Shown here piece after piece: positions 1,667 to 26,669 of a stretch of DNA of 64,000 bases. The notes beneath the pieces were generated by a model, which worked only from the letters and a program-made list of their open reading frames with translations, searched no databases and was not told the origin of the DNA. Every line of letters begins with the position of its first letter. Within the stretch, counting starts at the first letter, position 1. Source of the DNA: Paraspadella gotoi. Lineage: Eukaryota > Animalia > Chaetognatha. The stretch is from the NCBI GenBank assembly GCA_051294375.1, contig CM119263.1, forward strand, positions 7,332,494 through 7,396,493, read 5' to 3'. A program made the position numbers and the translations under genes.

Positions 1667-2706
1667 GACAGAATGTAATGAAATTTGCATAAATAACGGA
1701 AGCGAAGGCATAAATCTCGCCCCGCGATATTGGAGTTTTGCCACGAGTGCCCGTTATTTTTCTCCCGGCGCGACGGTCGTGCGAAGACAAAGGAGCATCG
1801 TCGGCGATGGAATTATTTACGGTCGGCGTCGCGGCGTCTCAGTATTGAAAGGTTTTTTCGGAGATTCCATAGGGTTTGTGAGGGGGAGAGCGAAGGCGGG
1901 AAGAGGGGCGTGAGGGTTATGTAAGAGGGGGAAGGAAACCGAAGTTCGTTTGTTGAGTATAATTCAGTTTCCGCCTCGGCTTAATCAGAAACTTTAGCGT
2001 CGGTCGTTTTTTGACGGTTTATTTCTCTACTTTCTGAGAAACCTATATTAAAACCTTCATGATTTTTAGCATTTTTAAAATAATTAATTCTACCGGATGG
2101 CCCATATTTTTATACTATCCAATCTAGATTTAAAAATATATTCTACTTATTTTTTTTTTTAAATAATTCAAAAATTTGATAAGATAGTATAATATTTGCT
2201 AGTTTCGAGCGCATCATCCACTTACTTAACAGTTAACAAAAATACTGCGCTTTTTAAAAACTTTCTTCCTTCTACTTTTATGGATATTGAGTAGGAGCCG
2301 TCGACGGCAGAAAAAATCTACTTCCTTTTGACAGTTTTTATGAGAAAATACATTTTTTATCGAAAAAATTTGTTGAACTGAAGAAAGTATATAAACTTGT
2401 ATATGTTGAGACGTCACGAGAACGGAAGGTATTTAATGCGAGGAAAATAAAAATCGATTTAGTACTAGTAGTAGATAGTACCTAAGAAAATAGAGTCTTA
2501 ATAAATGCGCAGCATAGTATTATCAAAATACAAATAGCTGTTCACTTTAAAACTAAATTTTTTTTTATAATTCCAGTGGTGGGACACGAATACTGGCTTA
2601 GATTCTATCATCAATCTCAGAATAAAAAATTCACCAAGTACATAAGTCATATGTTAAAATTTTCATAAACGGCGAGGTACAGGTCATCCCTAACGGGGAA
2701 GAATCT

Positions 2707-3782
2707 TCAAGCCTTCAACTGCACGACGGCCTTGAGACAACCCAACTGCTTGTCGGTGTTGATGTCTTTGATCTCCGCGTGGAAGTGGTACTCACCCGAG
2801 GCCAAGGCGGCGACTGCGAGATAATTAAACAATAAAAGCTTTAGGTCAGATATGGTAAGGTGTATTTCTGAATTGTTTTTTTCATTCATAGGTTAGAGAC
2901 TCACTTAATCTTCCAAAGTCCGGAATAAAGAACTTGACCCTCTCGGTCCTCAGTACACCCTTCTTGAAGGGGCACGAGCAGGGGATCCCGGACGCCTTGA
3001 CGTCGGCGGGGCAAGCCTCCTCTCCCCACATAACGTCGCAAATGTTGTTGAAGGTGCTGGGGTCGGAATTTATGACTCAATGGACACTTTTTTAATTCTG
3101 ACAAAAGTCGTTCTTCTTCTCACCAAGATCCTAAACCGTTGATGCAAGGAGCCGGAATTTTGACGAAGAGAACTTTTTTCTTTAGGCTCATCTCCATTTT
3201 GAATGTGGGTAAGTCGCGAGCGATGGTCGCCTAAGGAGATTGCGATATCTTTATTCTTTAGTATATTCTAAAATTATACTTATGTATACGAACGAAATAC
3301 AAAGAAATGCAGTATAATAAACCTATTTATACATTCCCTCAAGAAAAGATGATAATTGGATCGTCGAGTGGTGAATTTAAAAATGAGAACGAAAAACGAA
3401 AACCCAAAAGCTGCTTACGAGGCGAATTTTTAATACAAAAGAAGAAAAAATAAAAAAAAACAAAAACAAAAAAACAAGAGGCAGACATCGAAAGAGGCGA
3501 AGTTGTCGGCGTTTCCTTTGAGCGGAGACGGGCTGAGTTCGAGGTAGGAGAACTTAATCGGCCTTTCGGGATCAGTACCTGACGGAAAATATAGTAAGTA
3601 CATTTCTCATTAGTATTTATCATTCCAATAAAAACATTGCTACAGCCAAACGAGTGTACAACGTAATGTGGATACAAGACAAAGATTGTAAAGGAGCAAA
3701 AAGACTGACCACAATCCTCCCACGTGAACGCCTGCGCGGCGGCGAAGAGGCAAATCGCTGCGAAGTAAGTTAAGCTTCTCAT
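2707..3782 (-). CDS. GM2A: GM2 ganglioside activator-like secreted lipid-binding protein (ML domain), 5 coding exons, 176 aa
   Basis: Exons 3782-3710, 3578-3487, 3230-3124, 3056-2905 and 2813-2707 have GT-AG boundaries and compatible phases (73+92+107+152+107=531 nt). Protein: signal peptide MRSLTYFAAICLFAAAQA, then FTWEDCG...LSPSPL...KIPAPCINGLGSCTFNNICD...CPADVKASGIPCSCPFKKG...LASGEY...LGCLK. This is the GM2A Cys pattern. The exon 2 donor (gtctgc) is weak. Confidence 0.9.
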
Positions 3783-3891
3783 CCTGAAATTGTAAATTAA
3801 GAAGTCATTTTAAAATTTTTTGTTAAACCTTAAACGTAAAAATAATTCGACATGTTTGTTGTAGTTCGTTTTAAAATGTGTTTTTAAACTC

Positions 3892-3983
3892 CTTCATTAA
3901 TATAAAAATAAATAAAAAATACAAAAAGGAAATAGTACTTCATTAATATAAAAATAAATAAAAAATACAAAAAGGAAATAGTA
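3892..3983. repeat. ~46-bp tandem duplication
   Basis: cttcattaatataaaaataaataaaaaatacaaaaaggaaatagta x2. Confidence 0.85.
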
Positions 3984-4664
3984 CGTTTTAGATTTTGCAT
4001 CAAGATCTTAAAAAATAAATTAAAAATAAATCAATGAAGGAATAAAAAAGTATAAAAACGTATATATACAATAATTATTTTTTGGAATTATTATTTTAAA
4101 AGTCGTAGAGCCGTGCTCGATAAAAATTTAAAATTGATGACATAAAATCGCGGCGACGTGTATCGGGTGAATAAAAACCGGTGAATAATCCGGGTAAACT
4201 TGCTTTTTAATCTCTACCCGATTTTACCAAATGCGACCACTCATCAAATAATTAGGCTGCAAAGTACATTTTCCAATTATTCTACTTTTAAAGTGTTTAG
4301 AGGACGGTAATGTTTTGAAATGTCCTGGCCAGATGTCCAGTTCACAAAGGGAGTCGCGTGTGAGATCAAAAACCTTAATCGGAAAATTTTGTGTCAGCCG
4401 GATCATGTCAATTCATTGCACAGTGCGCAACAAGACACTTTCAAAAGGCTAAATGTTCAGGAAGATTTTGTATTTGCAATAGAATCGACTGAAACACTGA
4501 AACTACTATTATAAAACTAACCCTCGGAGTGAACATTTAAATCTTTGTGGTAAGGATATCGCGAGGCCAAAAATCATCTTTGCATCAAAACAAAGAGGGC
4601 AGAGGGCGAATAAAAAAAGGAAAACCTAAATCCTGATTCTAATCAGTTCACGACATGTTCGGTC

Positions 4665-4713
<49 letters not shown>

Positions 4714-5281
4714 ACAAAACGTTTAGTGCGGCCATAAAACGAGGCATCAGCACTCATCCAGGATATGAGATTTCTAATCGTCGCCCCGAGGGATTCCCTT
4801 CTCGCCTTCCCCTCGAAAATGGAAAAGGCGCTCCATTTCTTTTCATTTCTCTCTCTACCTGGAAAGTCACTTTCATTAAACGTTTACTCTTGTTCGTATT
4901 TAAGAGGTTTTCAACCTGAAAACCGACTGTAAAACATCTCGTTTACACTAAGTATAAACAATTCAAGTTAAAGTTTTCTTATTCTTTTGATTATTAATTA
5001 TTCTTTTATCATTTAATAAAATTAATAATTCTGACATCATTATTTTTTTTTCTAACTTAAAAATTAAAAAAGTAACAGAAGGACCAAGTTAAATTTTCGG
5101 ATGTTCATGATAAATGAATTTTCACACAATACGTGATGAAACTATGTAATGAATATTTTTAATCAAAATACAATGTTTTGAAAGAACAAAGGGGAAGGGA
5201 CGCAAGTGACCTCAATGAAGGCAACAACACCAGACTCAGAGCAGCGCCTTTGGCAATCTCTTCGTTCGTATAAAAGGTCCG

Positions 5282-5326
5282 GTGATCGCATTAGTGATCG
5301 CAGTAGTGATCGCATCAGTGATCGCA
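5282..5326. repeat. 12-bp tandem repeat (gtgatcgca-nna) x4
   Basis: Directly visible; overlaps the stop codon of the divergent tropomyosin-like last exon. Confidence 0.9.
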
Positions 5327-6191
5327 CTGTAGCGTCTCCAGCTCGTCAAATGTTGACTCTAATTCTGACGCGATCTCGGCGTAGCGACCTCGCCATTGGT
5401 CAAGTTGCTCTGTCAAAAAATAATGTATATAATCATATCAATATTCAATAATCAATGGTTCCACCTCTTTTATTATACAATATTCACTTTTTTTCCGACG
5501 TTTTGAACTCAATTTTACCTTCAAGAGTGATACAATGAAGAACGAGAGCCAATTTTCGATCCTCATATTCGCTTGCGCGCCTCTCCGCCTGAATTTTTAC
5601 ATTTTCACTTCAATCCTTCAATGACTCATTTATTATGTTAGAATTATAAAATTATCTTAGACCGAATACATGTCAGTTAGTTACATATGAAAATTTTATA
5701 TCTCCCAAATACTGCAATCAGAATACATTTTTGAGGGAATGAACGTATCGTAAAAATTATAACTGAAAAACCTAATTTTTCCAACATAAAACAAAAAATA
5801 AAAAATCTTACGTCTTCCACTCGGGCTTTCAGATCCATAACTTGCTCTTCGTAACAAAGGTCTCTCTCTAGGCCCTGCATAAAAGTTGCAAGAAATCGTT
5901 GTACAAAGTAAAATTATAAATATAATTCTTATGAATATTAATGATAAATGACCTCTTCCTCAGCCACTTGTAATTCCTTCATTCTTCTCCCCAAATCAAT
6001 CAACGCCAATTCTTGAGATTGAATTTCACTAAAAGGGTTGAAAAATTGACATTGGGTAAAAAAATTCTGAATGTTAGTTTTTTTTTGTTTTTTTTTAAAT
6101 AATATTTTTTTCACTCACGCTTCGTCACTCTTTCTATTCGAAATTCTGTGTGATCCAAAGCCTCTTCCATCGTCGACAAGTTTTCCGCCGC
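5315..6191 (-). CDS. Divergent tropomyosin-like exon cassette equivalent to exons 5-9 (orphan C-terminal half)
   Basis: Exon 6191-6119 (AAENLSTMEEALDHTEFRIE.., 73 nt vs canonical 71). Exon 6028-5953 (76 nt, EIQSQELALIDLGRRMKELQVAEEE). Exon 5874-5812 (63 nt, GLERDLCYEEQVMDLKARVED). Exon 5588-5519 (70 nt, AERRASEYEDRKLALVLHCITLE). Exon 5409-5315 (EQLDQWRGRYAEIASELESTFDELETLQCDH*). All are AG/GT bounded, three have exact tropomyosin exon lengths, and all align ungapped to the main gene's exons. Confidence 0.8.
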
Positions 6192-9100
6192 CTGAGAAAA
6201 TAACGTGTAGGCACTAACTGTATTAACAATATTTCCCTTCTTTTTCCTAGTAATTAATTTCCATCTTCCTTAAAACTCCTTCAAGTTAGTAGCAGCGGTT
6301 AGTAGTTTTCTGTATATATACATAAGTTATTGTTAAAGAGAGCGTTCGCGCCTTATAGTCGACAGGATTGCCGGATTCGCGAACATAACGCAAAAACGCA
6401 TTAAATTTTCTCCAAGTGCTCATGAAAAGTTGCCGAGGGAAAATGCTAAATAGAAAAAAGGGAAATAAGAAAAATATACTTCCAAGGCGTCGAGGGATTC
6501 TGGTTTGAAATTCGAAAACATTGCGAGCGCAACAACAGCGCGATCACAAAGAGAAAAGAAAAAGAGAATGGATACCATCATTTTAAAAGAAAGGCAGAAA
6601 AAAAGGACCGAGAGAGGAAAAGACAAAAAACTAAACTTGTCAAAAGAAAAAAAATGTTGTCTTTTTTTTTATTGAAGAAGAAGAAAATAAAAGTAGCATT
6701 TAATTCCCCCTGAATTCGATTCTACTATCTGCAATCGGATTGACTACCCTGAACGACCCCGCCCTTTTAATAAACGTTTCCTCTTCTTAAATCGGCTCCT
6801 GCCACCTCCCAATTAGAACGTCGAACTCCCCAGAAGAACTCCACAACCTTTTTTTTTTCTCACACGCAACATTGATTAAGAATGTGACTTTGAGTGTCAA
6901 TCAAGCGAGTGACTTTAAAAGCAAATGTGACTAGAGCGAATTAGAAAAGAGAATGTGAAGGAATCGAATCTCACGAAAGTTACTGGAACTAAAAATATCA
7001 TTTGTTTGTCAAAAATAACAAAATATATATAAAAATATAAACAATGGTAACGCTAATTTGAGATGACAAATCGCTAAGCATTCGGAAAGTTTTAAGGTTA
7101 AGAAGCGTATGCTGCCACTTTTCAAAAATTCTCCTCTTATTTTTTTATCGTACTTCAATATAAAATTTAAAATGTATACAGGACGCTTTTTATCCGAAGT
7201 TATTGACAGAGGGGGCCCAGTGGGGGGGGGCATTAAGTTGAGGCACATTTTATGGAGGGAACGTAAATCTAAGATTCTCGTCACCAAAATCAAATTATCG
7301 GAAATTTCAAACCGAGATTTTTAAGTCTTCTCCTCGCGGCTTTAATCCATAAAGGAAAAAAAAGGAGAAAAAAAAAGAAAAAAAGGAAATGGGAGGAAGG
7401 ATGCGCGACTCCGTCTAACTGAAAAGTGTCCAAAGGAAAAAAGAATAGATAAAAGTGGAAGAAGAAGAAAAAAAAAAATATTTAAAAAAAATAGTAGGCA
7501 AACGAAATTTCGATAATCAAATATTAAATAAAACTTAAACCGAGTAAAGGGACGGAAATATACAATGAAAAACCGTTAAGTCACCGCGAGGAGAGACTCT
7601 TTCCTTGCCTCCCAGGAAAAGATGCTTTTTCAAGGAGAAACAAGTCTAAACTCGATTATGTGGCTTCTCTTTTCGGCCGCAGGGATTTGTGGCCGTCGTC
7701 TTTTTCGTCGCTTTTTCAGTGAACCGACGCAGGAGCTTTGGATTGATAATATGGAAAGTAATAAGATTCGTTTTTGGGCGATGTGTTGAGTTGTTTTTAC
7801 AAAATTGTAAATTTGTGAATTGTTATTTTCTTTTTGGGTAAGGTTGATTCTCCTGCCATGATATTTTTTTTCTTTGAAAATTTCGTAATTTTAAAACCCT
7901 TAGAACTTATTAACGCCATGTCAATTTATGAGGGATGAATAGAATGGTGAATGAAATTTACTTAGCTGGAAAGAAAAATTGCATTGGAAAAAGTCTATTA
8001 GACATTATAACAAATATTTAGAAAGAAAAAAAGAAAGAAAGAAAAAGATGGAAAAAAAAGAAGAGCGATAATTGTTGGAGAGATTACAACCATGAAATGG
8101 AAACAGAGAGCCCATGTCAAAAAAGGTAGCTTCATAATGGACTTTGGACAATGAAAAAATTAAGGTCTACGTTCTTTCATTGCGTAAGCGGCAATGTTTA
8201 TGCAACTAAATCCGCTCAGGGCGTCCTGGCGGATAATTAAACCGCCTTTTGATTAACGACGCGAAACTTCACCGCAAAGTAAAAAAATAATAATTAATTA
8301 ATAAAGAAGGCGGGAAAAATAATTATAAAAATGAAAGTAGCAATACTTTGAATCATAAAAAAAATAAAGAAACTGGGGGATTGTTAAAAATTAAGATGAA
8401 ATGTTATCTGACCAAAACAATTATTAAATTCGGAAGGTTGTTAGTAATATAAAAGGTGAACCGAGAAATATTAGTGGGAATGGCGTCTTGAACGGTTAAA
8501 TTTAAAAAAGAAAAATAAATAAACTAATCTAAATGAGTTTTAGAAGCCATTAACTACCTGCCTGACGAGTTGTAAAAGAGGGAATATCTCCAAATCGGGG
8601 GGGAAAGCACAAGACGGTTGAGAGCTGTCGGAAGTAAAACGTTTAGTAACAATTATTTTACAAAATTTAAAGTAATTCACAAGTTTTGGTATAACTTTTT
8701 TTAAAGATTTATTACTTGATCATATAAGAAAAATATTACTTAGTATAATAGTAACAAAGGGTAGCGGAAACCAAGGGCAGAATTAGCTAACCATACAAAT
8801 ATGATGAGCCATAATAGAAGAGAAATCAAATCAATAAAAAAGCGCAAATGCGCGCATATATTTGTATAAACAACAACACTACCTAATTCTAAGAGCTGTT
8901 ATACTATTTCTGAGAATATTTTTGTGTTTTACCATAGACCCATTCCCACTAATAAAGCATTCAGATTAACGCTAATTTTTCTTTCCTTAGGCAAAGCTAG
9001 ATTAAAATGGATATACCTTGGAATAGTTGAGTATTCGAGCCCTTACGAACTCTATACTCTTTTCCAAGAAATGAATTTTTCTTTCATTTTCCCAGCAGAC

Positions 9101-9707
9101 GATCTCTAACTCTCGGACGGATCTGAATTGATAATTCGGAAAAAAAAATAAATGGTAGTTTTTTGACCGAAGATGATAAACGAGTTCGCCTTGCGGAATC
9201 TTCAATCAAAACCTCCTAAAAAACTTATATCGTCTGTCGAAAGAATCCAATAGAACTTAAAAAAAAAGGAGTCGTATTGAAACAGTACGCTTATATTTGA
9301 AATCGGCATATAAAAGATATATATGGAGAGAATTATAAACGACTAAAAAAAAAATCCTTTGAAAGTTGACACATTACACAAAAAATTTTAAGAACGAAAA
9401 AGAAAAAAACCGCATGATGAACATATTAATATTATTATGGTAGGAGGCGAGGCGCGAATAAAATTCCCAAAAACGAAGTGTTGATGACGTCATCGTTTCC
9501 GCTTCGTCGTCATGGTGACCGAGATGGTGGCGCTTCTTCCGTGACNNNNNNNNNNGGCTAGTCGACCAATGGGGTAGTGATGAACCATCATTAAACAAAT
9601 CATTCAAAACTCATTTCCACATCCGACTTTCTTCCTAACCTTCTAGGCTCCCTACCCTTCCCGAGGCTGCCGACTTCCCGCCCGCAGTCACACCCCTCGG
9701 CTGCCGC

Positions 9708-9783
9708 CGTTCGCCGGATCCCAGCCTAGTAGGATGCCGACGTTCGCCGGATCCCAGCCTAGTAGGATGCCGACGTTCGCCGG
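9708..9783. repeat. 33-bp tandem repeat, 2.3 copies
   Basis: cgttcgccggatcccagcctagtaggatgccga x2 + cgttcgccgg. Confidence 0.9.
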
Positions 9784-10344
9784 CCCCGACGAGGAAAATG
9801 AAGCGGCCAAACAAAATAAGGCGCCGTCTATTGTGCCAGATTTACATAATCGCTTGCGAACGAGAGAGAGAGAGAAATAACTTCTTTTTTTTTTTCACGA
9901 CTCCCCCTCGCTAATATTATTTCTCTCCTCTTCCTTTTTATAGTTTTAACGCGATAGGAATGCGTTTTTTACGACGGCCTTTCAGCGGAACTCGATGAGG
10001 AACGGAAACAATATGGTTCCGGACTTCAACGAGATTCCTTAGTTTTGAGTTAATTCATTTCATTAAAAAGATGTCAACAAAAACAGACTCGTAATGAGAG
10101 AGTTAGAAACATAAAGATCGTTGTCTGCGCTTGATCATTTGATGATCGATGATAAAAGTTATTCAAGATGAAAAATACAGGGGTGGGGAACCTATATCGA
10201 GACAACATTTAACAATTTTAAAAATCATAAAATCTTAATGATTTTTAAAATCTAAATAGATTTTAGTATTCTTCCTTCCTGTCAGATAATTAAATTAATC
10301 ATGTAAGATTTCTGAATGCNNNNNNNNNNNNNNNNNNNNNNNNN

Positions 10345-13300
10345 TGTCAGATAATTAAATTAATCATGTAAGATTTCTGAATGCATAATAAAAGTGTCCA
10401 AAAGGAAAGAAATTCATAAAGTTATTGACAATTTAAACATATTCATCATAATCTTCCTAAAATTTTGCTTTACTTACTTGAAAAAAAATTAAATAGGGTT
10501 AATTTGGATAGCGATGAAAAGCTTAAAATCAGGTGAATTGAAGATAAGAATAAAATGTCTTCAAGTTTGGCTTTTATCGCGTGCATAAAAACAACTTGTT
10601 TTGAAAACCTCCACGACGCGACTTTGCTTGCTTGTAGTTGCTAAATTTTTTTTTTCATTGTATATAAAATAAAAAGCCACTCATTTTATTGTATCAGTAT
10701 CTCAAATCGTTCAGAAAGGGCAGAACGTTGTTTTGTCTCGATATAGGGTCCACCCCTGTATGTCATATATCTTCTGTTTGAAGCCCAATCGGTGACAGAT
10801 CTCTCACCGATCAATATCCGGAGAGTTCGTTGAAGGCACGTTCCAGCTCGTCGCAGATGGCCTTGTACTTGTCCGATTCCGACACGAGATCGGCTGCGAG
10901 GGTAAAAAATGATTGGGGAAGGGAAAAAATCAGACTTGCATTTTGGTTTTGACCACATCGAAAGTGAACAAAAAGTTTTGTATTTTGGGGTACCTTAACG
11001 ACGAATGCAATCCGGATGGATGGATGTGATGCAAAACGGATGCGGGATTTCACTCAGATTTCACGGGGTTTTTTTTTCACTCTCGAGACTGCGTGCGTAT
11101 CACGCGTATAACGTGTGCGCGCGCACGAAATCGCGAGTTGGGAAGGTTCGACTCAAACATGCGTGTCAACGTGCAAAATTCAGGGTCGTTCATCTCTTTG
11201 GTGTTTTACATAGTTGACATTTTTACAATTAAATAATAGCTTTCACTCTAATTCTATTTAAATAAAATACTGCTGGATTTTAAAAAAATAAATCCTTAAT
11301 ATCCCGACATCTCGTTGAAAGTGGATTCTAATTCGAGGCAGATGCTTTTGTATTTTTCCACCCATTGCATTAATTCCGCTGAAAAGGGGACAATTTAAAT
11401 AATTATGGGTTAGACGAGTCAACTTTTTAACCAGTAAAGCTCAATCGAATGAACAACAGAGTAAAACAAAAACGCAACTGTTTTGAGCCTTGGGCCATAA
11501 GAGGACTCTCGACAAGGCTTTTTATTCAATCTTGGGCAAAAAACGGACAAAAAACCAAGATTTGAAAACCAACTTTTTTTAAAATAAATTAATATTCCGT
11601 GCACCTAATAGAGTTGTAATTTTATCACCATTCTTGAATATTAAATTAATCATCACTCAAACGCTTCAAACATTCTTAGCAACAATTTGAAATGACGTTC
11701 ACCTTACCTTTTAAACCTACCGCTTATAAGTCTTTGAAAGTTGGTTGAGTTTTAACTAATCAACACGGCACAGCAATGAAAAATTAATATTTCAAGACAA
11801 AAAGATCTGATAGTTGTTTTATTAATTAATGATAAGCGAATGTTTCACCTTGTAAGATGAAAAAACAAGATTATCTAGATAATTGTCGTTTAAAAAAACA
11901 CTACGAATCTCATTTGAATTAATTGTGCCAGAAACGTCGGAAAAAAAAAATTTACAACCCACAATCTAGGCACGATAATGATAATAATATATTTTCTTTG
12001 AAAAAGTCGCCATAAATTCATTTTAATTTAGGATTATTTAAAGGACAGCGCAGGTCCTAAGCGCGCATTTATTTTTATTCACACCGATGGGAGCGAAAAT
12101 CCCCAGTGCGACAGACAGTTTCTTCTGCATGCTCGTAAATAATAATAATAATCATGAAAGTAAAAGCTCATGAGATTATAATGAATCTTACAATTGCAAA
12201 AAAAAAAGGCTTGCTATTAAAAATCTTTAACCGATGAAGCAGACTTACGAAAGCAAGAGAACAGACAATTACACACAAAAAAAAAATATGGCATCATAAA
12301 TATGACTAAGATGATTGGCTGCGCCGAAATGGCGTGCTTTCTTTCCATGGGTGACCACTACTCATATTTATTCTGATCATGACCTTTAATACTCATGGAA
12401 TGTGTTAATTTCCACATCGCCGGTAAAAATATATATTTTTGAATATTGAACAGCCAAATAAAAATGAAAAACCTCACCACCCACCAAGCTCTTTTATATC
12501 GAAAGCAACAAAACGAGAAAAAAAAATTTACAAGAGTCGATTTTTGGGCGTCGAAAGGTAAGAGGCTTTGGAAATAAAGCTTAACTTTCACACATTTTTT
12601 TATTCCATTCAACAAATTACATTCGTATCACATTGGTAAAAGCCTTTAAATTTTATTTATCTCCGTTCAAAAATAATGCAGCCTCGTAAGCGAATGTTAA
12701 AAAAGGAAGCACATTTAAGATTCGCCTCTTATCTCACATTATGTACAAATTTTATCGCTATAAAATTAAAAAAAAAGAAAAACCCGCTCGAAGACGCTGC
12801 GACGATGCTACCCAGCACCAGCTGCTGCGTGGATTCAGTTTTCAAAACGCGATCAATGATTAAAAAAATACATAATACATATTAAAGAATTCTTAATGAA
12901 GTATTGCAATGAAAACAAAGGTTTGATAAGTCGAGGCAACCGTCGAAAGGCAGGAACCGAAACTATTAAATGGTCTTTTCGGTGACCAAATTGTTACGAG
13001 GAACATCTATAAAAGACATTACATTTTTTAACGTTAAATTAAAAAGGTAAAACTTTTAAAATACTAAATTCTTTGAAAATTATTAAAGAAAAGAATGAAT
13101 TATTTTTAGTTATGTTTAGATGTTCTAATACGAAAACGATTTCCCGCGCGCGCAAACAAGTTCTCGACACGCGCGCGACCACCGACGCCGCCGCAACTTT
13201 CATCGTTTTGGTGTTTAATTTTTTTTTTTTTTTTGTCTTGGTTTTCGTTGTCTTCGCGGAGAAGCGAGCGGGCGAGCGAGAAAGGAAAGACGTTACATTT

Positions 13301-15335
13301 CAGCCAACTCTGAAAACGCGGTATCCATTTCAGACTGCAGTTTGTTCACTTTTTCCCTCTCGTGCTCATACTCTCCTATTGGGAAAGGGGAGAGGAAGCG
13401 GATATAAGGGTTAGTCACAGCAAACGACTCACCTTGGAAGTCTTAACTTGTAACGAGGAGCTCAGTGGCATAATATTTAGTTGTTATGTTTAATAATGTT
13501 TATAAAAATTTGATTAATATTTAGTTATTCGAAAGTTGACTGAATTACAATCTGTCGACTTACGTTCGACTTTGTCCACTTGTTTTTGCAGAATTTCAAC
13601 CTGCCTTTCCGCCTGATCTGCTCTTTCTTCTGTCTGTAGATGGCGAATGGATCGGAGTCGTAAAACGTGACATGCATAAAAACAAAGGCAACTGCAGTAA
13701 GAACCATGCGATAATTTTTCTCGATCAAAAGTTGGGGAAAATTTAGTTGGGCTTGGGTTAAGAAAACGGGCGAACTTACCCCGATTCTGGCCGTAAATTT
13801 TACTCAAATGATAGAAAATGAGTAGTGATATCTACGAACTTAAGATTCAATCATTCATCGACAATCATTCCTCCTTAGTATCATTTCAAGTGGTCTAGTT
13901 TTACTAATTAAAACATCATGCAAAAAAAATACAAATATTGCCACTTCAAATGAAAACCAAATAATAAAAAATAATGAAAAAAGGTTTGAAGGGAATAGAG
14001 AGAGAAGTCGGCAGTAAAGAGAGAAAAAATAGAGAAAAGAAGGGAGCTGTAAGGGGAGATAAAGAAAACAGGCGCGAAAGAAGAAAAAGAAGAGAGAAGA
14101 GAGAGAGAGAGAGAGAGAACAAGGGAGACGGTTGACGAATAAGGGGGGAGAAAAGGGGGAAGAGAAAGAGGGCATCCTTCGCGACGCGGAATGCGATACC
14201 TTCGAGTTTATCACATTCCTTCTGTAGTTTTCCGGTTTGGCGCTCGCCCTCAGCGGCGCGAGCTTCAGCCTGTTTGAGAATTAGTGAAATAAAAAGGGCA
14301 ACGGAGTCGGAACAGTGAGTGACAGTCACAACAGACACGGCACAACCATGAATTTAATTTTAACGGTTGATAGATGGAGAGAGATTGACAAAAAGAGTAT
14401 GAGGATGTTATGTAAAATTTAAATATAATCTAAATTAAACTAAATCTTCAAAGTCAGGGCAAGAAACCCGTTACCCATTTTAATAAATGAATGGATAAGT
14501 TTATATTGGTGGTGCTAATTTCATTCAAAAAAATGTTGGTACGAAACCATAAGAAAAATTCACTGCAAAGAAAAACGTTGTTTAAAAAAAAAAACGTCAG
14601 CACGGCAAGAACGCCCAGCGGATTGCGGGACTCACGTCCTTGAACCGCCGTGCTTGAGATCGCGGATAGTCTCCTCGTAGGATTCCTCGCGAGAAAGAGC
14701 CTGTGAAAGAAGAGGCGAGTGTATAGTGAAAGGATTGGGTGACACTTACGCGACCGAGACGAGCCGTCAAGTCACGGGATCGAGAATTCGTACGCAATCT
14801 TCGCGACAATTCGCCTAATGAGAAGGCGGGGGTAGAACGTTTAGAACTTAACTTAACTTTTAAATGACCAACAATACTTCAATCTGTTGCTCGTTTATAG
14901 CGGTGATTAAATACGTTTCGTTGATATGAGTCAATATTTTACTTATCATCTTACGTAATTCTGGCTTTCTTTAGGAAACAACTGATAAACAGAGGAAAAA
15001 AATCAAGCAACAAGAAACAAAAAATGTCAGTTCTCACCTCAGCCTCGGAGAGACCTCCAATGATTTCATGTTGTTGCCGACAACCTTCAACTCTTCTCCA
15101 ACTCTTGAATCTTTCTGTTGGCGATAAGACGAAGCAAATAAATATATAAAATCTGGCACATTTATTCACTTTCACTTCAAAGACGCAATCGTTCTCTTAT
15201 GCAAAAATCAATCGAACTCACCTTCTCGCGTGCTCTGCCGCTCCTCAGCCCGCCTCAAATCGCCTCCAGCACAACGACCTTACGCGCCAGCCTTCATGTG
15301 CAAATGGGATGGAGGACACCACGGCAAATGCATGC

Positions 15336-15385
<50 letters not shown>

Positions 15386-15426
15386 GAGAGGTAGTGTGTT
15401 AGATAAATTACAAGATCGAAATCACG

Positions 15427-15461
<35 letters not shown>

Positions 15462-18400
15462 GGCTAGGAATATAAGAAGTTAGTTAAACATGTCTTAACA
15501 AAAGTAAAGAGAAAGACTGTGAGGAGCTGAACAATTAACAGACTTGACAAACTTTATCGTTAGTAAATTTATTACGCAATGTTTGAAAACTTATCCAAAA
15601 TCTATATGTTAATTAAATAGCTCTGCTCACTGTTCCATTGGCTAGTTGCAAAAGACAAAAATAATTTTTCAAATATTTCGTTATTCATTTCGATGGCCAT
15701 CGACCAATCCTTCAAGTTCTCATTCTTAGTCCGGATTACTTTTTTATAGATTTGAGTTAAAAAGGTAGAAGGTAGAATACTTCATCCGGATTAAGACACG
15801 CGATGTGAAAGGAATTCGATCGTTGACGTCACCCTTCAGAAATAACACTTTCAATATATCACTTTATTTATTAACGACTGATATTGTTTAAAATAATTAA
15901 CCAGCCAATGACGTCACGGCAATACTAAAAATTTAACCAATGACGTCACAGCAAACCACAAAATTTCAGCCAATGAAAATGGTTTACGGGAATTTTTCAG
16001 AGCGAACGGACCCCAGAAGACTATTAAAATACTCGACATCGAAAACGTAACTAATGAAATTTTTCAACTGATGAAATTGAAAACCATTTTTTTCGAAGAA
16101 AAATAGCCTTCTCGCGCCATCCTTCCTCTGAAAAAGAATCCCGATTTGCCACTCACGCCTCAGCGTCGTCAGCGCGTTGTTCCGCGCGCTCCAGGTCGAC
16201 CTCCAACATTGCCAGGCGCCTGGACGCCTGTCAATCACCAAAACGAGTGTGAGAAATAAGCTAATATTTAAACGAAATAGGCGTGCAAGTAAGGAAGAAG
16301 CTGCAAACGACAATAACTATAATTTAATTCTTACGTTTGCGGTCTCCTTCGTGGACGTGCCAGGTTATCTAGATGTGTCGGCTTATCTAGACGACGTGCA
16401 GTGATGCGGAAAACGAAAAATGTGACGCTATGCTAAACGGAAAAAAATACGCGAAGAACGTGCAAAAATAACGAGGCGTGCAAATTCTCCGAAGGTTTTT
16501 TTGTTTTAACAAGAACTTGATTGAATTCTATGGATTGTTAGAGTCTCGTAAAAACAGAATATAACAGTTGAAAACTTAAAAACTATAAATCGTCCCACTC
16601 ATGACAACTTCCGCATAATTCGAAGTGGGCGGTGGTCGTCAAAACGCAGCATGCGATACATTTTTTTTTCGCTGATAATTCTTTCCAAGATGCTCTTCAT
16701 TTTTAAACATTATTTCGTCGGTCAAAAATCTGAGTCGGCACAGCAAATTTTTTTTGACATGCTATTAGTGTCTTTTTTTAGCCAGCCTTGATGCTGCATT
16801 TTCTGTGTGGGTTCTTTGCGAGTTTTTACAAACAGATCGCTCGTTGGCTTTTAATTTTTCTAATATCAAAACTAAAGAGGTGCTTAGGTTTTTCCGGTGC
16901 TGCGAGTTTCACCTCAAAAATTTACTAATTTTAAACAATTGATACTTATACTAAAAAAACTTTCAAATTAAAAATAAGTGAGTGACTGTACCTCTTTCAC
17001 TAAAGGGTATAAGATTAGGGACGGATCGTCCGAGAGACACTCTTCCTTAATCGTTTCTAAGGAATTTGACGCTGAGGGAAACTCCTGTCCTTCCTTGTCT
17101 CTCTCACGTAAATGGGACGTTGTCCTGCGGAAGAATGATCCGCTTGAATGAGATCAACTCGATCGATTTATTCTTTCAAATAAACATTTTGTATTTCCTA
17201 ATATTTATAATTTTGGATTATTTTTGGTAAATTTCGGCGTGAAGAAAAAAAAAACTCGCAACAGGAAACCCCTATACGGGATGCTGTCTCAAAAGAGGCA
17301 ATGAGCTGCACGTAAAATAAGCGAACAGGCCGGCTTTGCGCACGGCCATGACGAAGAGATTTGGGAAGAGACGATGCTCGGACGCGGCCTCCGTCCATTG
17401 GCGTCTCTAAAAACGGTTCCCCTAACGCCTAACACTCGTCGTATTTTCTGTCAGAGTCCTCGCGATCATCTGCGCCTCTTTGAAGGGAGAGTTCCAACGC
17501 GGCGATGCGCTCGTCATTGGAAGCCTCAAGTTCTCAAGCACTTTGCGACCTCTGACGAGTTAGGGACGGGGTGTTTTGTTTTTGTTTTTTGGATAAAGGA
17601 GAACGTAGCAAAAAAAAACTCAGCGAGGCAAAAATAATTGCAATTACTAAACGCTCCCGACTGTCCACTCCCCCATTACTCAGATTTCTATTGCATTCGA
17701 AAGATCTAGCGTTGTAGACCGAACAAAAAAGATTAGTTGTAACAAGAATTACAATAATATTAGTCAAACGAAAAAAATAACCCTAAAATTTCGTGCCAAA
17801 CGCGCGATATTAAAGCCGGCACAACCCACAGAGAAACCCACTGGCGAGAAACATCAAGACTGCGACCTTAGTTTTTTCTTCTGTGCTCTACAAAACTCGA
17901 TCCGTTTCACACTCCGAAGCTTTGGCGTCCTTTAACTACAAGTTAGTCAGCTATTCCGTCCGGAAAGCTTGGAGACAAGTACTGACTCCTGTCTCCAATG
18001 GATACCTCGTCGTATTTTCGATCTGAATCTTTCCGCGATCATCTGAGCCTCCATCAATTGAGTCTCCAGAGAAGCGATGCGCTCCTCATCCAAGAAGCTT
18101 CGGTTTTCTAGAACCTTGCGTCCTCTGATGGAGACACGCCAAATTAAATGTAGAACTCGGAGGGAAAAATTGACTCATTAATACACTAGCAATTATGAAG
18201 ATATCTTATTAGGTCAGTCTCAAAGCTCAAAGAACTACATTTTCTTTAGATTTAACAGAATATCAAGATTTGTACATCAAGAACGGTCCCAATGATAAGC
18301 CACTTTCACTCACTATTTTTATAACTAATGCTTGTCAGAAAATGTCGAATAACCTGCGAAAAATTTGTCAGCCAAATAGAAATATTTTTATTAATTAATT

Positions 18401-21020
18401 TATAATCTCATATTGGCTGCATGCGGATAAACGCCTTTTACTCTTATAAGCATATACTCCATGAAAGATAGTTTAGACTTTTTGTTTTACATGCTGGTTT
18501 CCCAACTATGTATGATTAAGGATTTGAGTTATTTGTTTGTCGTGAAATCAAATAAGAATTCATCATGTAGAAAAAACTAAAATAATTATTAACTTTTTTG
18601 CTGTCCCAGAATTACAGAAAGAAAAGGGAGATTGAAAGAAAAAAAATTTGGATGGGAAATTAAAAAGAAAACTAGGTAGGAGAGAAAATTTTTTTTCCAT
18701 TTAAGATTTTAGAACAATTTAACTGAAAAGAGAAAAATTATAAGGAAGGAGACAATAATTGAGAAGAATTCACTTCAGAGTGAAGAAAGAAAAATAAAAT
18801 AGAATAAATAAATAAAAATAAATAAAATAAATAGAAGAGATAAGGAGGAAATCCTCTACCTCCTCGTATTTTTTGGCGGAATCTTCAGCGATGACTGTCT
18901 TTTTCTGAATTTCTGCATCCAAACTCGAAATCTGTTTCTTCCAAAGCGTCATTCCGTTTGTCCAAAACTTTTCGCGCTCTAAGTTATTCAGTTTTGGGTT
19001 TTGAAAAAATTTTATAATAAAAATTACCTTATTCCATTTCAATCATCACCCTTGGTTTTTGGTCATTAAAGTTAGTTCACCAATTGTTCAAGTGTAAATC
19101 AAAGCACCGTTGAAGCTGTCGACATGTATGCTTAGATTAAATTGAGGGATAGTGGTTTGGCCCCAAGAATTTCGCTAAAGATACCAGTGTGAAAACGTAG
19201 ATTGGTATAGATTTGGAGAAAGCAAGGGATGCGAATTACTAAGCCATTAGAAAGGGCCTTCACTGTACCTCTTGATATTTTTTGTCTGAATCTTCTATTA
19301 ATTGTTTTGAATCTTTGAGTTGAATCGCAACTGCCTCAATTTTCATCCTCATGTATGCGAGTAGTTTTTTTCCAAATTTCTCCTTCCCCTACAATAATTA
19401 TAATAACCATGGTTGCACATTCAATAATCAGTTTGTATTAGAATACTTTCAGGTAAACTTAACCGATATATAGCCTAATGCTAAAAGGAAATATAAAACA
19501 ATGAAGAACAATTAAGCTCAAAATTAAAAAGAAATCGTCGGAACGAAAAATAGAGAATGAATCGATACGTAGCGGACAAGGAATATCAATTGTTAACAGG
19601 AATACAAGGTATATAATGTAAGACTGGATCTGTGGTGCTTGTCTGTGTGTTCATTGCAAGTGGCTGTAGTGAAATGAGTTGGAAAAGAAAATAGGAGATT
19701 CTTTGCTTTACTGCTAAGTAAGCAATTGCGACGTCTGCACTAACCTGCATCATTAATACCACATACCTCTTCATACTTTCTATTCACTTCTTCTGCTATA
19801 AATTTGGCCTCTTTTAGTTTGAAGAGCACAAAATATCTATTCGATCTTCCAAATATTTGCGAGCCGTTATCCAACAGCTTTGCGTTGCATTGGACAGCTA
19901 GTAAAGGATTTTCAAGTGACAGAGTTAGATAATAGATAAAAAAAAAGAAACAATGAATTTTTTTTCTCGCAACGCTGAATCAACAACGAAAGCATTAAGC
20001 TTTGAGACATTCAGACATAAGTCACCTTTACTTGTAACCAGTCTGACAACTGAAGTCAGCATAAAGGGAAATAATATCAATCCCACTTCCGTCCAGCGTA
20101 CTCTCGACTCCGGTCGGCTTGGCTTTTGACGGTTCCTCCAGCCTTCTCCGACGCGATCTGAAGACGCTTCTTTCGCGCATTCTCAAGTCCTCCTCAACCA
20201 AACTGGCATTCGGCGTTGAAGAGCGGAGACCTCGCCTCGGCCCCTCGGAGTGGGTTTGTGGCAGGAAATGGGTGGCATGTTTGGAAGATAAGGAGGGGAG
20301 AGGAACGGAAACTAGATTGAGGATGAATTTTTGTTTTCATAAGGGTTTTATTCTTACAGATCAAGAATTTCAATGTGCTGCTTTGACAGTTCCTCGTTTC
20401 CAATTGGATAATTTTTCGTCTTTCTTACTTTCTCTTCTCTTTTTCTAGTCTGTGTTTTCTCGGTCAATCGACGCTCTTTCACAAAACTACGCGAAAACCG
20501 AATAAAGAAAATTAAAAAATTTTCAAAAGGATTTGGTGACTTAGGGCTTTTTTCTTTATTCCTTCTTTGAATCCCTTTTATGTCTCTCTTCAAAAAAATA
20601 GTCAATCTTTGCAGTTCTGTATTCATAAATCATTCTATAAGGTTTTTACCAGAATTTTAAGAGATGAAAATCCTCTGGTTTAAATTTAGGAGGTTCTTGC
20701 TAATATTCTGCGGCGAATATTAATTTTCTTACTTCGAGTCGATCTCGGCAATAAACTCTGAAATCGCCGAGCTGTTTATCCTTGAAGGAGGTCTTATAAA
20801 CATTCTAGGCTTTTTATTCAAGATGTATACCAAGTTCTAAAAATCCCTGGTTCGCGAAGGAAAACTGCCACAAAAAAATTAAGAAACCGTAGATTTGAAT
20901 TTCGATTCGATTCTTTAACATGAAAAAAAAATTCCGAGCCAACAAGTCATGTCACAGAGTCGAACAAAGATTAGTATTTGATCTTTAAAACAATTACCTC
21001 AACTAGAAGCCAATCTAATT
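10345..21020. repeat. ~10.7 kb tandem duplicate of 21672-32306 (probable assembly artefact)
   Basis: Collinear and nearly identical, introns included. It begins at a 25-N gap. Differences are mostly 1-nt indels, which increase toward 21 kb. Confidence 0.93.
10811..20245 (-). pseudogene. Duplicate tropomyosin exons 3-9 with frameshifting indels (likely a false duplicate rather than a real pseudogene)
   Basis: Exons 9b (10811-10893), 9a (13293-13375), 8b (13564-13633) and 8a (14200-14269) are intact. Exon 7b (14636-14700) is 65 nt instead of 63. Exons 7a, 6, 5b, 4a-e and 3 carry indels relative to the other copy. No exon 1 or 2 is present. Confidence 0.75.
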
Positions 21021-22017
21021 GATCTCCTCTTTTTAGCTTAAAATCAGGTGAATTGAAGATAAGAATAAAACTGTTTGGCTTTTATCGCGTGCATAAAAAC
21101 TTGTTTTGAAAACCTCCACGACGCCTTGTACTTATTGTAGTTGTTGTACTTGTACTTGTTGTAGTTGCTTAAATTTTTTTTCTTCATTGTATATAAAANN
21201 NNNNNNNNATGATAAAAGTTATTCTCGATGGAAAATACAGGGGGTGGGGAACCTATATCGAGACAACATTTAAAAATTTTAAAAATCATAAAATCTTAAT
21301 GATTTTGAAAATCTAAATAGATTTTAGTATTCTTCCTTAGCTTTTAGACGATGTATTAATTGTTTTGAAATTCTTTGATATTATGCTTTTTTTGATGCAG
21401 CAAAGTAAACTGCCCGGTTTTCTCCGCGCGTTTTGAAAAAAAAAAGTTTGAATACTTATTTTTAAATCTCATTCTAATACATAACAGTTAAAATATTTTT
21501 GGAAGTACTTATTTGTAATATAATAACGCTTCTAGCAAGGTATACACTGTACAAGTGAACATGGTATTTGGTTACAAAAAATATAAAGTAAGCAGGTAAG
21601 ATTTGGGTAAGTTACTGTATGGTTTAATTTTTATTAAAGCTTAATTTTATCAAGAAATTTATTAACGATATTGTCAGATAATTAAATTAATCATGTAAGA
21701 TTTCTGAATGCATAATAAAAGTGTCCAAAAGGAAAGAAATTCATAAAGTTATTGACAATTTAATCATATTCATCATAATCTTCCTAAAATTTTGCTTTAC
21801 TTACTTGAAAAAAAAATTAAATAGGGTTAATTTGGATAGCGATGAAAAGCTTAAAATCAGGTGAATTGAAGATAAGAATAAAACTGTCATGTGAAGAATA
21901 TTAACAAGTTTGGCTTTTATCGCGTGCATAAAAACAACTTGTTTTGAAAACCTCCACGACGCCTTGTAGTTGCTCAAATTTTTTTTTTCATTGTATATAA
22001 AATAAAAAGCCACTCAT

Positions 22018-22023
22018 TTTATT
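22018..22023 (-). terminator. Candidate polyadenylation signal (AATAAA) for exon 9b
   Basis: AATAAA on the minus strand about 120 nt after the stop, followed by GT/T-rich sequence. The hexamer is common in AT-rich DNA. Confidence 0.45.
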
Positions 22024-22145
22024 GTATCAGTATCTCAAATCGTTCAGAAAGGGCAGAACGTTGTTTTGTCTCGATATAGGGTCCCACCCCTGTATGTCAT
22101 ATATCTTCTGTTTGAAGCCCAATCGGTTGACAGAATCCTCACCGA

Positions 22146-22228
22146 TCAATATCCGGAGAGTTCGTTGAAGGCACGTTCCAGCTCGTCGCAGATGGCCTTG
22201 TACTTGTCCGATTCCGACACGAGATCGG
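22146..22228 (-). CDS. TPM: Tropomyosin alternative terminal exon 9b (muscle-type ..ELSGY*)
   Basis: 83 nt, [27 protein letters not shown]; cag acceptor. Confidence 0.95.
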
Positions 22229-25200
22229 CTGCGAGGTAAAAAATGATTGGGGAAGGGAAAAATAATCAGACTTGCATTTTGGTTTTGACCACATCGAAAG
22301 TGAACCAAAAAGTTTTGTATTTTGGGGTACCTTAACGACGAATGCAATCCGGATGGATGGATGTGATGCAAAACGGATGCGGGATTTCACTCAGATTTCA
22401 CGGGGTTTTTTTTTCACTCTCGAGACTGCGTGCGTATCACGCGTATAACGTGTGCGCGCGCACGAATCGCGAGTTGGGAAAGGTTCGACTCAAACATGCG
22501 TGTCAACGTGCAAAATTCAGGGTCGTTCATCTCTTTGGTGTTTTACATAGTTGACATTTTTACAATTAAATAATAGCTTTCACTCTAATTCTATTTAAAT
22601 AAAATACTGCTGGATTTTAAAAAAATAAATCCTTAATATCCCGACATCTCGTTGAAAGTGGATTCTAATTCGAGGCAGATGCTTTTGTATTTTTCCACCC
22701 ATTGCATTAATTCCGCTGAAAAGGGGATCAATTTAAATAATTAATGGGTTAGACGAGTCAACTTTTTAACCAGTAAAGCTCAATCGAATGAACAACAGAG
22801 TAAAACAAAAACGCAACTGTTTTGAGCCTTGGGCCATAAGAGGACTCTCGACAAGGCTTTTTATCAATCTTGGGCAAAAAACGGACAAAAACCAAGATTT
22901 GAAAACCAACTTTTTTTAAAATAAATTAATATTCCGTGCACCTAATAGCAGTTGTAATTTTATCACCATTCATTGAATATTAAATTAATCATCACTCAAA
23001 CGCTTCAAACATTCTTAGCAACAATTTGAAATGACGTTCACCTTACCTTTTAAACCTACCGCTTATAAGTCTATTGAAAGTTGGTTGAGTTTTAACTAAT
23101 CAACACGGCACAGCAATGAAAAATTAATATTTCAAGACAAAAGAATCTGATAGTTGTTTTATTAATTAATGATAAGCGAATGTTTCACCTTGTAAGATGA
23201 AAAAACAAGATTATCTAGATAATTGTCGGTTTAAAAAAACACTACGAATCTCATTTGAATTAATTGTGCCAGAAACGTCGGAAAAAAAAAAATTTACAAC
23301 CCACAATCTAGGCACGATAATGATAATAATATATTTCTTTGAAAAAGTCGCCATAAATTCATTTTAATTTAGGATTATTTAAAGGACAGCGCAGGTCCTA
23401 AGCGCGCATTTATTTTTATTCACACCGATGGGAGCGAAAATCCCCAGTGCGACAGACAGTTTCTTCTGCATGCTCGTAAATAATAATAATAATCATGAAA
23501 GTAAAAGCTCATGAGATTATAATGAATCTTACAATTGCAAAAAAAAACAAGGCTTGCTATTAAAAATCATTTAACCGATGAAGCAGACTTACGAAAGCAA
23601 GAGAACAGACAATTACACACAAAAAAAAAATATGGCATCATAAATATGACTAAGATGATTGGCTGCGCCGAAATGGCGTGCTTTCTTTCCATGGGTGACC
23701 ACTACTCATATTTATTCTGATCATGACCTTTAATACTCATGGAATGTGTTAATTTCCACATCGCCCGGTAAAAATATATATTTTTGAATATTGAACAGCC
23801 AAATAAAAATGAAAAACCTCACCACCCACCAAGCTCTTTTATATCGAAAGCAACAAAACGAGAAAAAAAAAATTTACAAGAGTCGATTTTTGGGCGTCGA
23901 AAGGTAAGAGGCTTTGGAAATAAAGCTTAACTTCTCACACATTTTTTTATTCCATTCAACAAATTACATTCGTATCACATTGGTAAAAGCCTTTAAATTG
24001 ATTTATCTCCGTTCAAAAATAATGCAAGCCTCGTAAGCGAATGTTAAAAAAGGAAGCACATTTAAGATTCGCCTCTTATCTCACATTATGTACAAATTTT
24101 ATCGCTATAAAATTAAAAAAAAAAAGAAAAACCCGCTCGAAGACGCTGCGACGATGCTACCCAGCACCTAGCTGCTGCGGTGGATTCAGTTTTCAAAACG
24201 CGATCAATGATTAAAAAAATACATAATACATATTAAAGAATTCTTAATGAAGTATTGCAATGAAAACAAAGGTTTGATAAGTCGAGGCAACCGTCGAAAG
24301 GCAGGAACCGAAACTATTAAATGGTCTTTTCGGTGACCAAATTGTTACGGAGGAACATCTATAAAGATACATTTTTTAACGTTAAATTAAAAAGGTAAAA
24401 CTTTTAAAATTCTAAATTCTTTGAAAATTATTAAAGAAAAGAATGAATTTATTTTTAGTTATGTTTAGATGTTCTAATACGAAAACGATTTCCCGCGCGC
24501 GCAAACAAGTCTCGACACGCGCGCGACCACCGACGCCGCCGCAACTTTCATCGTTTTGGTGTTTAATTTTTTTTTTTTTTTTGTCTTGGTTTTCGTTGTC
24601 TTCGCGGAGAAGCGAGCGGGCGAGCGAGAAAGGAAAGACGTTACATTTCAGCCAACTCTGAAAACGCGGTATCCATTTCAGACTGCAGTTTGTTCACTTT
24701 TTCCCTCTCGTGCTCATACTCTCCTATTGGGAAAGGGGAGAGGAAGCGGATATAAGGGTTAGTCACAGCAAACGACTCACCTTGGAAGTCTTAACTTGTA
24801 ACGAGAGCTCAGTGGCATAATATTTAGTTGTTTAATAATGTTTATAAAATTTGATTAATATTTAGTTATTCGAAAGTTGACTGAATTACAATCTGTCGAC
24901 TTACGTTCGACTTTGTCCACTTGTTTTTGCAGAATTTCAACCTGCCTTTCCGCCTGATCTGCTCTTTCTTCTGTCTGTAGATGGCGAATGGATCGGGAGT
25001 CGTAAAACGTGACATGCATAAAAACAAAGGCAACTGCAGTAAGAACCATGCGATAATTTTTCTCGATCAAAAGTTGGGGAAAATTTAGTTGGGCTTGGGG
25101 TTAAGAAAACGGGCGAACTTACCCCGATTCTGGCCGTAAATTTTACTCAAATGATAGAAATGAGTAGTGATATCTACGAACTTAAGATTCAATCATTCAT

Positions 25201-26669
25201 CGACAATCATTCCTCCTTAGTATCATTTCAAGTGGTCTAGTTTTACTAATTAAAACATACATGCAAAAAAATACAAATATTGCCACTTCAAATGAAAACC
25301 AAATAATAAAAAATAATGAAAAAAGGTTTGAAGGGAATAGAGAGAGAAGTCGGCAGTAAAGAGAGAAAAATAGAGAAAAGAAGGGAGCTGTAAGGGGAGA
25401 TAAAGAAAACAGGCGCGAGAAAAAAAAAAGAAAGAGAGAGAGAGAGAGAGAGAACAAGGGGAGACGGCTTGACGAATAAGGGGGGAAAAAGGGGGAAGAG
25501 AAAGAGGGCATCCTTCGCGACGCGGAATGCGATACCTTCGAGTTTATCACATTCCTTCTGTAGTTTTCCGGTTTGGCGCTCGCCCTCAGCGGCGCGAGCT
25601 TCAGCCTGTTTGAGAATTAGTGAAATAAAAGGGCAACGGAGTCGGAACAGTGGAGTGACAGTCACAACAGACACGGCACAACCATGAATTTAATTTTAAC
25701 GGTTGATAGATTGAGAGAGATTGACAAAAAGAGTATGAGGATGTTATGTAAAATTTAAATATAATCTAAATTAAACTAAATCTTCAAAGTCAGGGCCAAG
25801 AAACCCGTTACCCATTTTAATAAATGAATGGATAAGTTTATATTGGTGGTGCTAATTTCATTCAAAAAAATGTTGGTACGAAACCATAAGAAAAATTCAC
25901 TGCAAAGAAAAACGTTGTTTAAAAAAAAAAACGTCAGCACGGCAAGAACGCCCAGCGGATTGCGGGACTCACGTCCTTGAACCGCGTGCTGAGATCGCGG
26001 ATAGTCTCCTCGTAGGATTCCTCGCGAGAAAGAGCCTGTGAAAGAAGAGGCGAGTGTATAGTGAAAGGATTGGGTGACACTTACGCGACCGAGACGAGCC
26101 GTCAAGTCACGGATCGAGAATTCGTACGAATCTTCGCGACAATTCGCCTAATGGAGAAGGCGGGGGTAGAACGTTTAGAACTTAACTTAACTTTTAAATG
26201 ACCAACAATACTTCAATCTGTTGCTCGTTTTAGCGGTGATTAAATACGTTTCGTTGATATGAGTCAATATTTTACTTATCATCTTACGTAATTCTGGCTT
26301 TTCTTTAGGAAAACAACTGATAAACAGAGGAAAAAAATCAAGCAACAAGAAACAAAAATGTCAGTTCTCACCTCAGCCTCGGAGACCTCCAATGATTTCA
26401 TGTTGTTGCCGACAACCTTCAACTCTTCCTCCAACTCTTGAATCTTTCTGTTGGCGATAAGACGAAGCAAATAAATATATAAAATCTGGCACATTTATTC
26501 ACTTTCACTTCAAAGACGCAATCGTTTTCTTATGCAAAAATCAATCGAACTCACCTCTCGGCGTGCTCTGCCCGCTCCTCAGCCCGCTCCAAATCGCCTT
26601 CCAGCACAACGACCTTACGCGCCACCTTCATGTGCAAATGGGATGGAGGACACCACGGCAAATGCATGC

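Follow-up and report, generated by a model that had tools for sequence, protein, structure and literature searches.

Tropomyosin is the textbook example of an unbroken coiled coil, with seven repeats that match seven actins; the parallel dimers of the standard long form join head to tail along F-actin. Irimia et al. reportedly described in 2010 how exons duplicated in tandem act as internal paralogues within the tropomyosin genes of bilaterians. The duplication of exons with mutually exclusive use is presented as common in tropomyosin genes in one review (PMC3342872), and another paper describes the protein as composed of seven repeats of 39-40 residues in an unbroken coiled coil (PMC4714992); the 39-residue exon 4 corresponds to one full actin repeat. 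Such internal paralogues are, like the exons presented here, duplicates within one tropomyosin gene that are mutually exclusive; they are also tied to one N-terminal form, which may hold for the present exons too. In the C. elegans isoform LEV-11U, an alternatively spliced and strongly divergent segment, exon 7c, likewise yields an atypical isoform with a changed surface charge (PMC10512467), and the Drosophila isoform aTm1, or Tm1-I/C, is also described as the product of a tropomyosin gene that makes a non-standard coiled-coil isoform through exon choice (PMC8247599).

In the window, that is, the whole stretch of 64,000 nucleotides of Paraspadella gotoi DNA analysed here, a tropomyosin gene is followed by an exon named Y and by five further exons, referred to as the module. 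These exons form a transcribed and spliced second copy of exons 4-9, likely spliced in cis to the gene's own exon 3, which would give a long-form isoform predicted to have a proline-containing hinge where the fourth actin repeat normally stands. Taken as a whole, this explanation is probable, and the confidence placed in it blends that of two parts: the architecture, in which exon 3, Y and the module belong to one gene, is highly probable, and the chances that the isoform has a role in the thin filament are about even.

The main gene and the quality of the assembly

The main gene lies on the minus strand. An upstream coding exon with an ATG (40818-40833) would lengthen the protein by 13 residues ahead of the classic tropomyosin Met, and similar extensions are present in the relatives' proteins P0004, P0007, P0008 and P0009; this addition to the N-terminus (40833-40818) could change the head-to-tail overlap. 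The remaining 5′ exons are exon 1a, the long-form start (39433-39569), exon 2 (37242-37367, 126 nt), exon 1b, the short-form start (35459-35605), and exon 3 (31420-31553, 134 nt), the branch point, which ends two bases into a codon and is 93% identical to P0005. The standard block (22146-31216, minus strand) comprises five coiled-coil exon 4s, the non-helical 4f, a single exon 6, three versions of exon 9 and a pair each of exons 5, 7 and 8; exons 4a-4c are strongly divergent. Exon 4f (28349-28481, minus strand, 133 nt; copy at 17124-16992) is a proline-containing, non-helical exon-4 variant placed before the standard exon 5. It encodes 44 residues in the window and has homologues of 68-79 residues in P0007, P0009 and P0010 (shuffle p of 0.002 or less for each), all of them ending in a Tyr-Pro-Leu motif.

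The standard block is repeated at 19888-10811, and exon 3 has a frameshifted second copy at 20241-20101. A direct repeat relates 10345-21019 to 21672-32306 at 96% identity. An inverted repeat (39154-42318 versus 42467-45574) includes exon 1a a second time, on the plus strand. The comparison of the two block copies revealed 236 gap openings, 199 of them of a single base, and 78 mismatches; 11 of the 17 exons contain gap columns. The second copy of the block is likely an assembly duplicate, and we infer that the repeated block is a single locus which entered the assembly twice, with its long-read errors left uncorrected. Other near-identical duplicates beside N gaps, including the inverted repeat and 53742-55529, present many single-base indels and are likely assembly artefacts. 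Between the module and the main gene there is a 10-N gap (9546-9555), adjoined by a GC-rich tandem repeat with a unit of about 33 nt (9790-9700), and a 25-N gap is found at 10320.

The downstream module, its RNA and exon Y

The sequence-only reading had described, downstream of the main gene, five spliceable exons in tropomyosin order that align ungapped to exons 5-9 and share few residues with them, and this description was confirmed. The module is composed of exon 5 (6119-6191), exon 6 (5953-6028, 76 nt), exon 7 (5812-5874, 63 nt), exon 8 (5519-5588, 70 nt) and the coding part of exon 9 with its stop (5315-5409, 95 nt), all on the minus strand and with AG/GT ends; exons 6 and 7 are supported by both RNA and alignment. 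Ungapped identity to the main-gene exons amounts to 6/20 (5a), 11/25 (6), 9/21 (7b), 10/23 (8a) and 9/26 (9c), or 45 of 115 residues (39%) altogether, and in shuffle tests the real score of each of these five pairs was reached by at most 6 of 10,000 shuffles. Module exon 9 is nearest to 9b (12/26, versus 9/26 for 9c and 6/26 for 9a). The lengths and phases are those of tropomyosin exons 5-9, namely 71 (in the RNA), 76, 63 and 70 nt, followed by a last exon in the correct phase. About four tandem copies of a 12-nt unit (5324-5282) include the stop codon, and this repeat may explain the last residues of the tail. The 3′ UTR can be followed on the minus strand to the limit of the RNA contig (5099-5314), and ATTAAA occurs at 5163 and 5017.

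RNA of the species came from one run, labelled 'RNA?', whose contigs were compared with positions 2500-7200. A neighbour gene in this interval (2500-3783, minus strand) is, by eye, what we take to be an ML-domain / GM2-activator protein; a Pfam search with one of its exons named no family and did not confirm the ML-domain reading. This gene is spliced in an RNA contig, which bears at the acceptor at 3783 16 loose letters absent from the window, and these are the last 16 of the chaetognath leader SL2 as given in Table 3 of PMC2481426. This leader end points to an arrow worm as the likely source of the window, and it indicates that the run holds RNA.

The module exons had been called orphan, and a lack of spliced reads on them had been named as the outcome that would speak against the proposal. 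Instead, one RNA contig of 688 nt (depth 15.9) spans module exons 9 to 5, splices all five and joins them to exon Y, which had been missed; the pieces of this contig sum to 688 when two rows absent from the printed table are included. Its joint 5409/5519 is clean, and joints 5587/5811 and 5873/5952 have canonical intron ends, yet are flagged 'between: not known'. At joint 6028/6132 the RNA carries 11 letters in place of 13 in the assembly, and exon 5, of 73 nt in the assembly, is therefore 71 nt in the RNA, in frame and reading like the relatives at this point. The 73-nt length had been ascribed to either a consensus error or early decay, and the RNA, free of a frameshift, places it on the error side: an assembly error is likely. 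A decaying duplicate with a real frameshift would account for the 73 nt of the assembly, and the RNA possibly came from a different individual, so that a broken allele is conceivable. This explanation is nevertheless scarcely credible in view of the 71-nt exon in the RNA, the indel-rich assembly, in which gap openings far outnumber mismatches between the block copies, and the open modules found in three other sequence types.

The loose end of the contig behind 6194 has a single match in the window, at 8590-8561, within exon Y (8558-8624, minus strand, 67 nt). This proline-containing exon-4 substitute, which leads into the module, is open as 1+66 nt, has an AG acceptor and a GT donor, is compatible in phase with the exon 3 donor and is 57-60% identical to the corresponding segment of P0005. 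It is located downstream of every normal last exon. Y and module exons 5-9 are, therefore, spliced together in the window's species. Y did not resemble any of the coiled exon 4s (p 0.42-0.99). When it was compared with 4f, p was 0.033 for the window's own pair and ranged over 0.007-0.53 for nine relative pairs, three of them under 0.05; these sequence comparisons speak weakly for homology of Y and 4f, which is not claimed. Upstream of Y there is an exon-4-like candidate, exon X (9017-9122, minus strand; 106 nt, or 76 nt with a donor at 9046), which has the phases of exon 4 and aligned in register to exon 4e at p 0.002, the best of five, with p 0.09-0.47 for the other four exon 4s. At 9212-9186, just upstream of X on the minus strand, nine residues resemble the last part of exon 4c (E 0.58), which may reflect either a relic exon 4 or chance. 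Pfam searches with X or Y named no family.

The contig overhangs Y by 30 nt (97-67). Since Logan graphs use k = 31 (10.1101/2024.07.30.605881), such an overhang would be the k-1 overlap expected where the graph branches, for example at an exon 3 with many followers. Alternatively, the module might be attached by trans-splicing, whether to the exon 3 of a different pre-mRNA or, as a module-only message, to a spliced leader at the Y acceptor: this organism does trans-splice a leader, which is 36 nt long beside 30 unread letters upstream of Y, and a cis route must cross three last exons. However, the leader-spliced neighbour shows an overhang of 16 nt (common to SL2.0-2.5), not 30, the sole early in-frame Met of the window's module exon 5 is not conserved in relatives, and with the same strand and order cis-splicing is simpler, so that joining in trans is considered improbable. 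The favoured joint in the window's species is thus a cis joint of exon 3 to Y, which would cross three normal last exons and, with the duplicate collapsed, about 11.7 kb plus the 10-N gap of unknown size.

The module among the proteins of relatives

A search with exon 3 retrieved relatives' proteins at 90-98% identity. Lineage motifs are borne by 24 of the 255 proteins collected, counts that come from searches and cluster look-ups, not expression, and these proteins are assemblies that can be chimeric; for example, P0124, with a P0004-type 5′ end and a P0005-type module, looks chimeric. After exon 3, eight of the 24 present a Y homologue and the module, three a 4f-like segment with standard exons and 11 a coiled exon 4; the sequences of the other two do not show this place. 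All 22 proteins showing the segment have one exon-4-slot type each, as expected for mutually exclusive use. Relatives make two kinds of presumably hinged isoform, the 4f type and the Y type, since the standard block has its own non-helical 4f.

In all eight module proteins exon 3 is followed by the Y homologue, and in none by a coiled-coil exon 4. An upstream phase-0 exon-4 variant had been proposed as the entry to the module, an expectation supported neither by this order nor by the RNA, in which module exon 5 is joined to Y. The broader proposal of a swappable C-terminal module of one gene gains support from the relatives' proteins (8/24) and was corrected in its extent, the swap spanning exons 4-9 and not 5-9. 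Mixing of module and standard exons was seen in none of the collected module proteins. They start with exon 1a in seven of eight cases and with 1b in none, in a sample that is small and biased by the search.

The N-halves of module and other (4f-type) isoforms are 98-99% identical, and five of the eight module proteins agree with P0007 and P0009 over the N-half in 116/117 to 123/124 residues. In contrast, comparison of the module with the standard exons by codon position gave identities of 64/117, 64/116 and 29/116 for the first, second and third positions (about 55% versus 25%). A separate paralogous gene, whose own exons 1-3 would either lie concealed in the 9546 gap or owe their identity to gene conversion, hardly fits N-halves so alike beside a C-half whose third positions are saturated. 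The true size of that gap is unknown, tandem duplication is common in chaetognaths (PMC12460157), and candidate exon X would be more of the gene copied, all of which would favour such a paralogue. Nevertheless, the absence of exon 1-3 equivalents downstream of the main gene, already stated by the sequence-only reading, held in a tblastn search of 6192-10810, where the best match (E 0.011) was a lysine-rich stretch on the opposite strand, and the 25-N gap at 10320 is bridged by the other, upstream copy of this stretch of the block. A separate paralogue is thus very unlikely. Judged by its codons, the module is an old duplicate under protein-level selection. It lies as one block behind exon 9c rather than as exons chosen side by side, one by one, and an old duplication of the block within the gene is its inferred origin.

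The window's module is identical to P0005 or P0121 at 81 of 118 residues (69%), and P0005 and P0121 share 102 of 123; the fragment P0015 represents a fourth module type. By exon, identity to relatives is 13/20 in exon 5, 19-20/23 in exon 8 and 20-21/29 in exon 9. The standard block, identical to P0010 at 115 of 118 residues, is far more conserved than the module. A search with module exon 9 alone gave no match among four candidates, and one with residues 117-269 of P0005 returned, from 210 candidates, only P0005, P0008 and P0004. A module profile compared with 1.84 billion representatives yielded 126 matches, in which the module cluster scored 280 bits and the following ones 80 bits and below. 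Of the next 14 matches examined, one was an unrelated coiled coil and the others were ordinary or other divergent tropomyosins, and Y occurred in none; module relatives outside the lineage were thus found neither with P0005 117-269 nor among these 14. The family is that of the tropomyosins: an atlas search found tropomyosin clusters only, all 11 PDB matches were tropomyosins, and Pfam PF00261 was recognized in the two relatives' proteins submitted, P0005 (136.2 bits) and P0121 (116.9 bits), against a cut-off of 38.6. A tree of 27 C-halves gave the module a long stem (1.56), with P0135 and the standard block of the lineage as its neighbours (92/91, unstarred); three rows were out of register, and no origin is drawn from this tree. 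The tropomyosins P0135 and P0256, both divergent and full-length, have a Trp at position 263, as in exon 9b and module exon 9; P0135, the neighbour of the module in the tree (93/82), could represent a further paralogue of the lineage.

Predicted hinge, altered surface and possible role

In the module form, the 39 residues of exon 4 are replaced by the 21-22 residues of Y, with Pro in three of four types, and the product would have 271 residues from the classic Met against 284 in the standard form, and would lack the unbroken coiled coil of seven repeats. AlphaFold2 modelled P0005 as a helix at 2-123, a break at 124-138 and a second helix at 139-268, with pLDDT under 50 at 123-132, in a monomer model built from 7 close sequences with a pTM of 0.31; the prediction of a two-copy complex scored 0.07 against a mark of 0.32 and carries no weight here. 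The model suggests, therefore, a hinge in the middle of the module isoform. Fifteen extended residues would reach 51-54 Å versus 49 Å for the 33 helical residues lost, so that the C-half would keep register only if the linker were stretched.

Beyond the break, the heptad core is preserved and the surface is not. Hydrophobic residues occupy 27 of 34 a/d positions in the module and 30 of 35 in the standard exons, and identity between the two is 20/34 in the core versus 9/48 at the outer b/c/f positions. Across three module types the core does not vary at 28 of its 34 positions. Outer Lys or Arg residues fall from 12/49 in the standard exons to 3/48 in the window (Fisher p 0.022), 2/51 in P0005 (p 0.004) and 2/51 in the third type, in tests picked after the alignment was seen. 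The equivalents of R167, K168, R244, D254, K268 and D272 are lost in all three module types; R167 contacts actin D25 (PMC4714992), and R167, K168 and R244 are listed as myopathy sites (PMC5035734). Among the seven troponin T contact positions taken from PMC9832952, 250, 254, 259, 268 and 272 are changed in all three types, 257 is kept and 266 is still basic. The surface residues with which the standard long form contacts actin and troponin T are, consequently, not conserved as a set, and the C-half of the module, as deduced from these residues, likely binds both poorly. The acidic actin contacts 177, 184, 257 and 275 are retained, and actin binding need not be lost, because several such contacts survive. 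In addition, module exon 8 carries at standard positions 247-254 an invariant, mostly hydrophobic outward patch (247, 248, 250, 251, 252 and 254), which the standard exon does not have.

The main functional alternative keeps the same architecture but has the isoform work away from actin, where it would serve in the cytoplasm as an adaptor or scaffold like aTm1 or LEV-11U. It would explain the loss of the outer basic residues and the invariance of the new hydrophobic surface. In addition, a single divergent exon gives LEV-11U poor actin binding (PMC10512467), and aTm1 binds kinesin (PMC8247599). By contrast, the N-half retains its three actin repeats unchanged, the long-form exon 1a prevails over 1b, and the last exon is still well conserved, observations that leave an adaptor off actin a tentative and rather unlikely alternative. 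Under the favoured reading, that of a hinged long-form isoform, the exon 3 donor would pick one of the five coiled exon 4s, the variant 4f or the remote Y, a choice surmised here from protein order in relatives, and the choice of Y would bypass all normal last exons and commit the message to the module. The normal N-half would then dock on actin and in the head-to-tail cable, in one muscle type, while the hinged C-half would flex at Y and sit loosely on actin or swing off it, and the invariant hydrophobic patch might bind a new partner at the usual troponin T site. The outcome would be a segment of thin filament with altered regulation or anchoring. The secondary muscle of chaetognaths has been called unique among animals because two sarcomere types alternate in it (PMC2020476). 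A more speculative and doubtful extension is that the gene holds a kit for hinged tropomyosins, in which two separate non-helical exons, 4f and Y, each stand in for the fourth actin repeat, and the tropomyosin with the re-surfaced C-half behind Y, where a new binding patch has taken over from the actin and troponin T surface, builds the unusual sarcomere type of this muscle.

A conserved and expressed isoform with a predicted central hinge and a re-surfaced C-half would indicate that the rule of the unbroken coil can be broken within one gene, and the module isoform would offer a natural test of which half serves cable assembly and which troponin control. Annotation pipelines are likely to treat the module as a separate fragment or as a pseudogene. 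Neither a chaetognath tropomyosin nor a hinged cassette of a whole half was found in the open-access literature searched, and the word 'tropomyosin' is absent from the main text and three supplementary files of the chaetognath genome paper PMC12460157. Provisionally, such a cassette is regarded as new relative to known exon duplication. Unlike in the internal paralogues, exons 4-9 were copied here as a block behind all last exons, are 39% identical to the standard ones and have in the exon-4 slot a segment that is not coiled-coil. LEV-11U differs by one rare exon (about 1/5000 of 7b), in its normal place and in a short form, whereas the present case concerns six exons, the long form and a shortened, proline-containing middle. 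The aTm1 / Tm1-I/C type, marked by an antiparallel dimer and kinesin binding, can be set apart by the P0005 model, which is predicted to be helical at both ends. Finally, the module isoform shares with the standard long form (PF00261, tropomyosin alpha-1 chains of the PDB) the lengths and phases of exons 5-9 and the heptad core, and departs from it in its 271 rather than 284 residues, the replacement of repeat 4 and the loss of outer basic residues and of several troponin T contacts.
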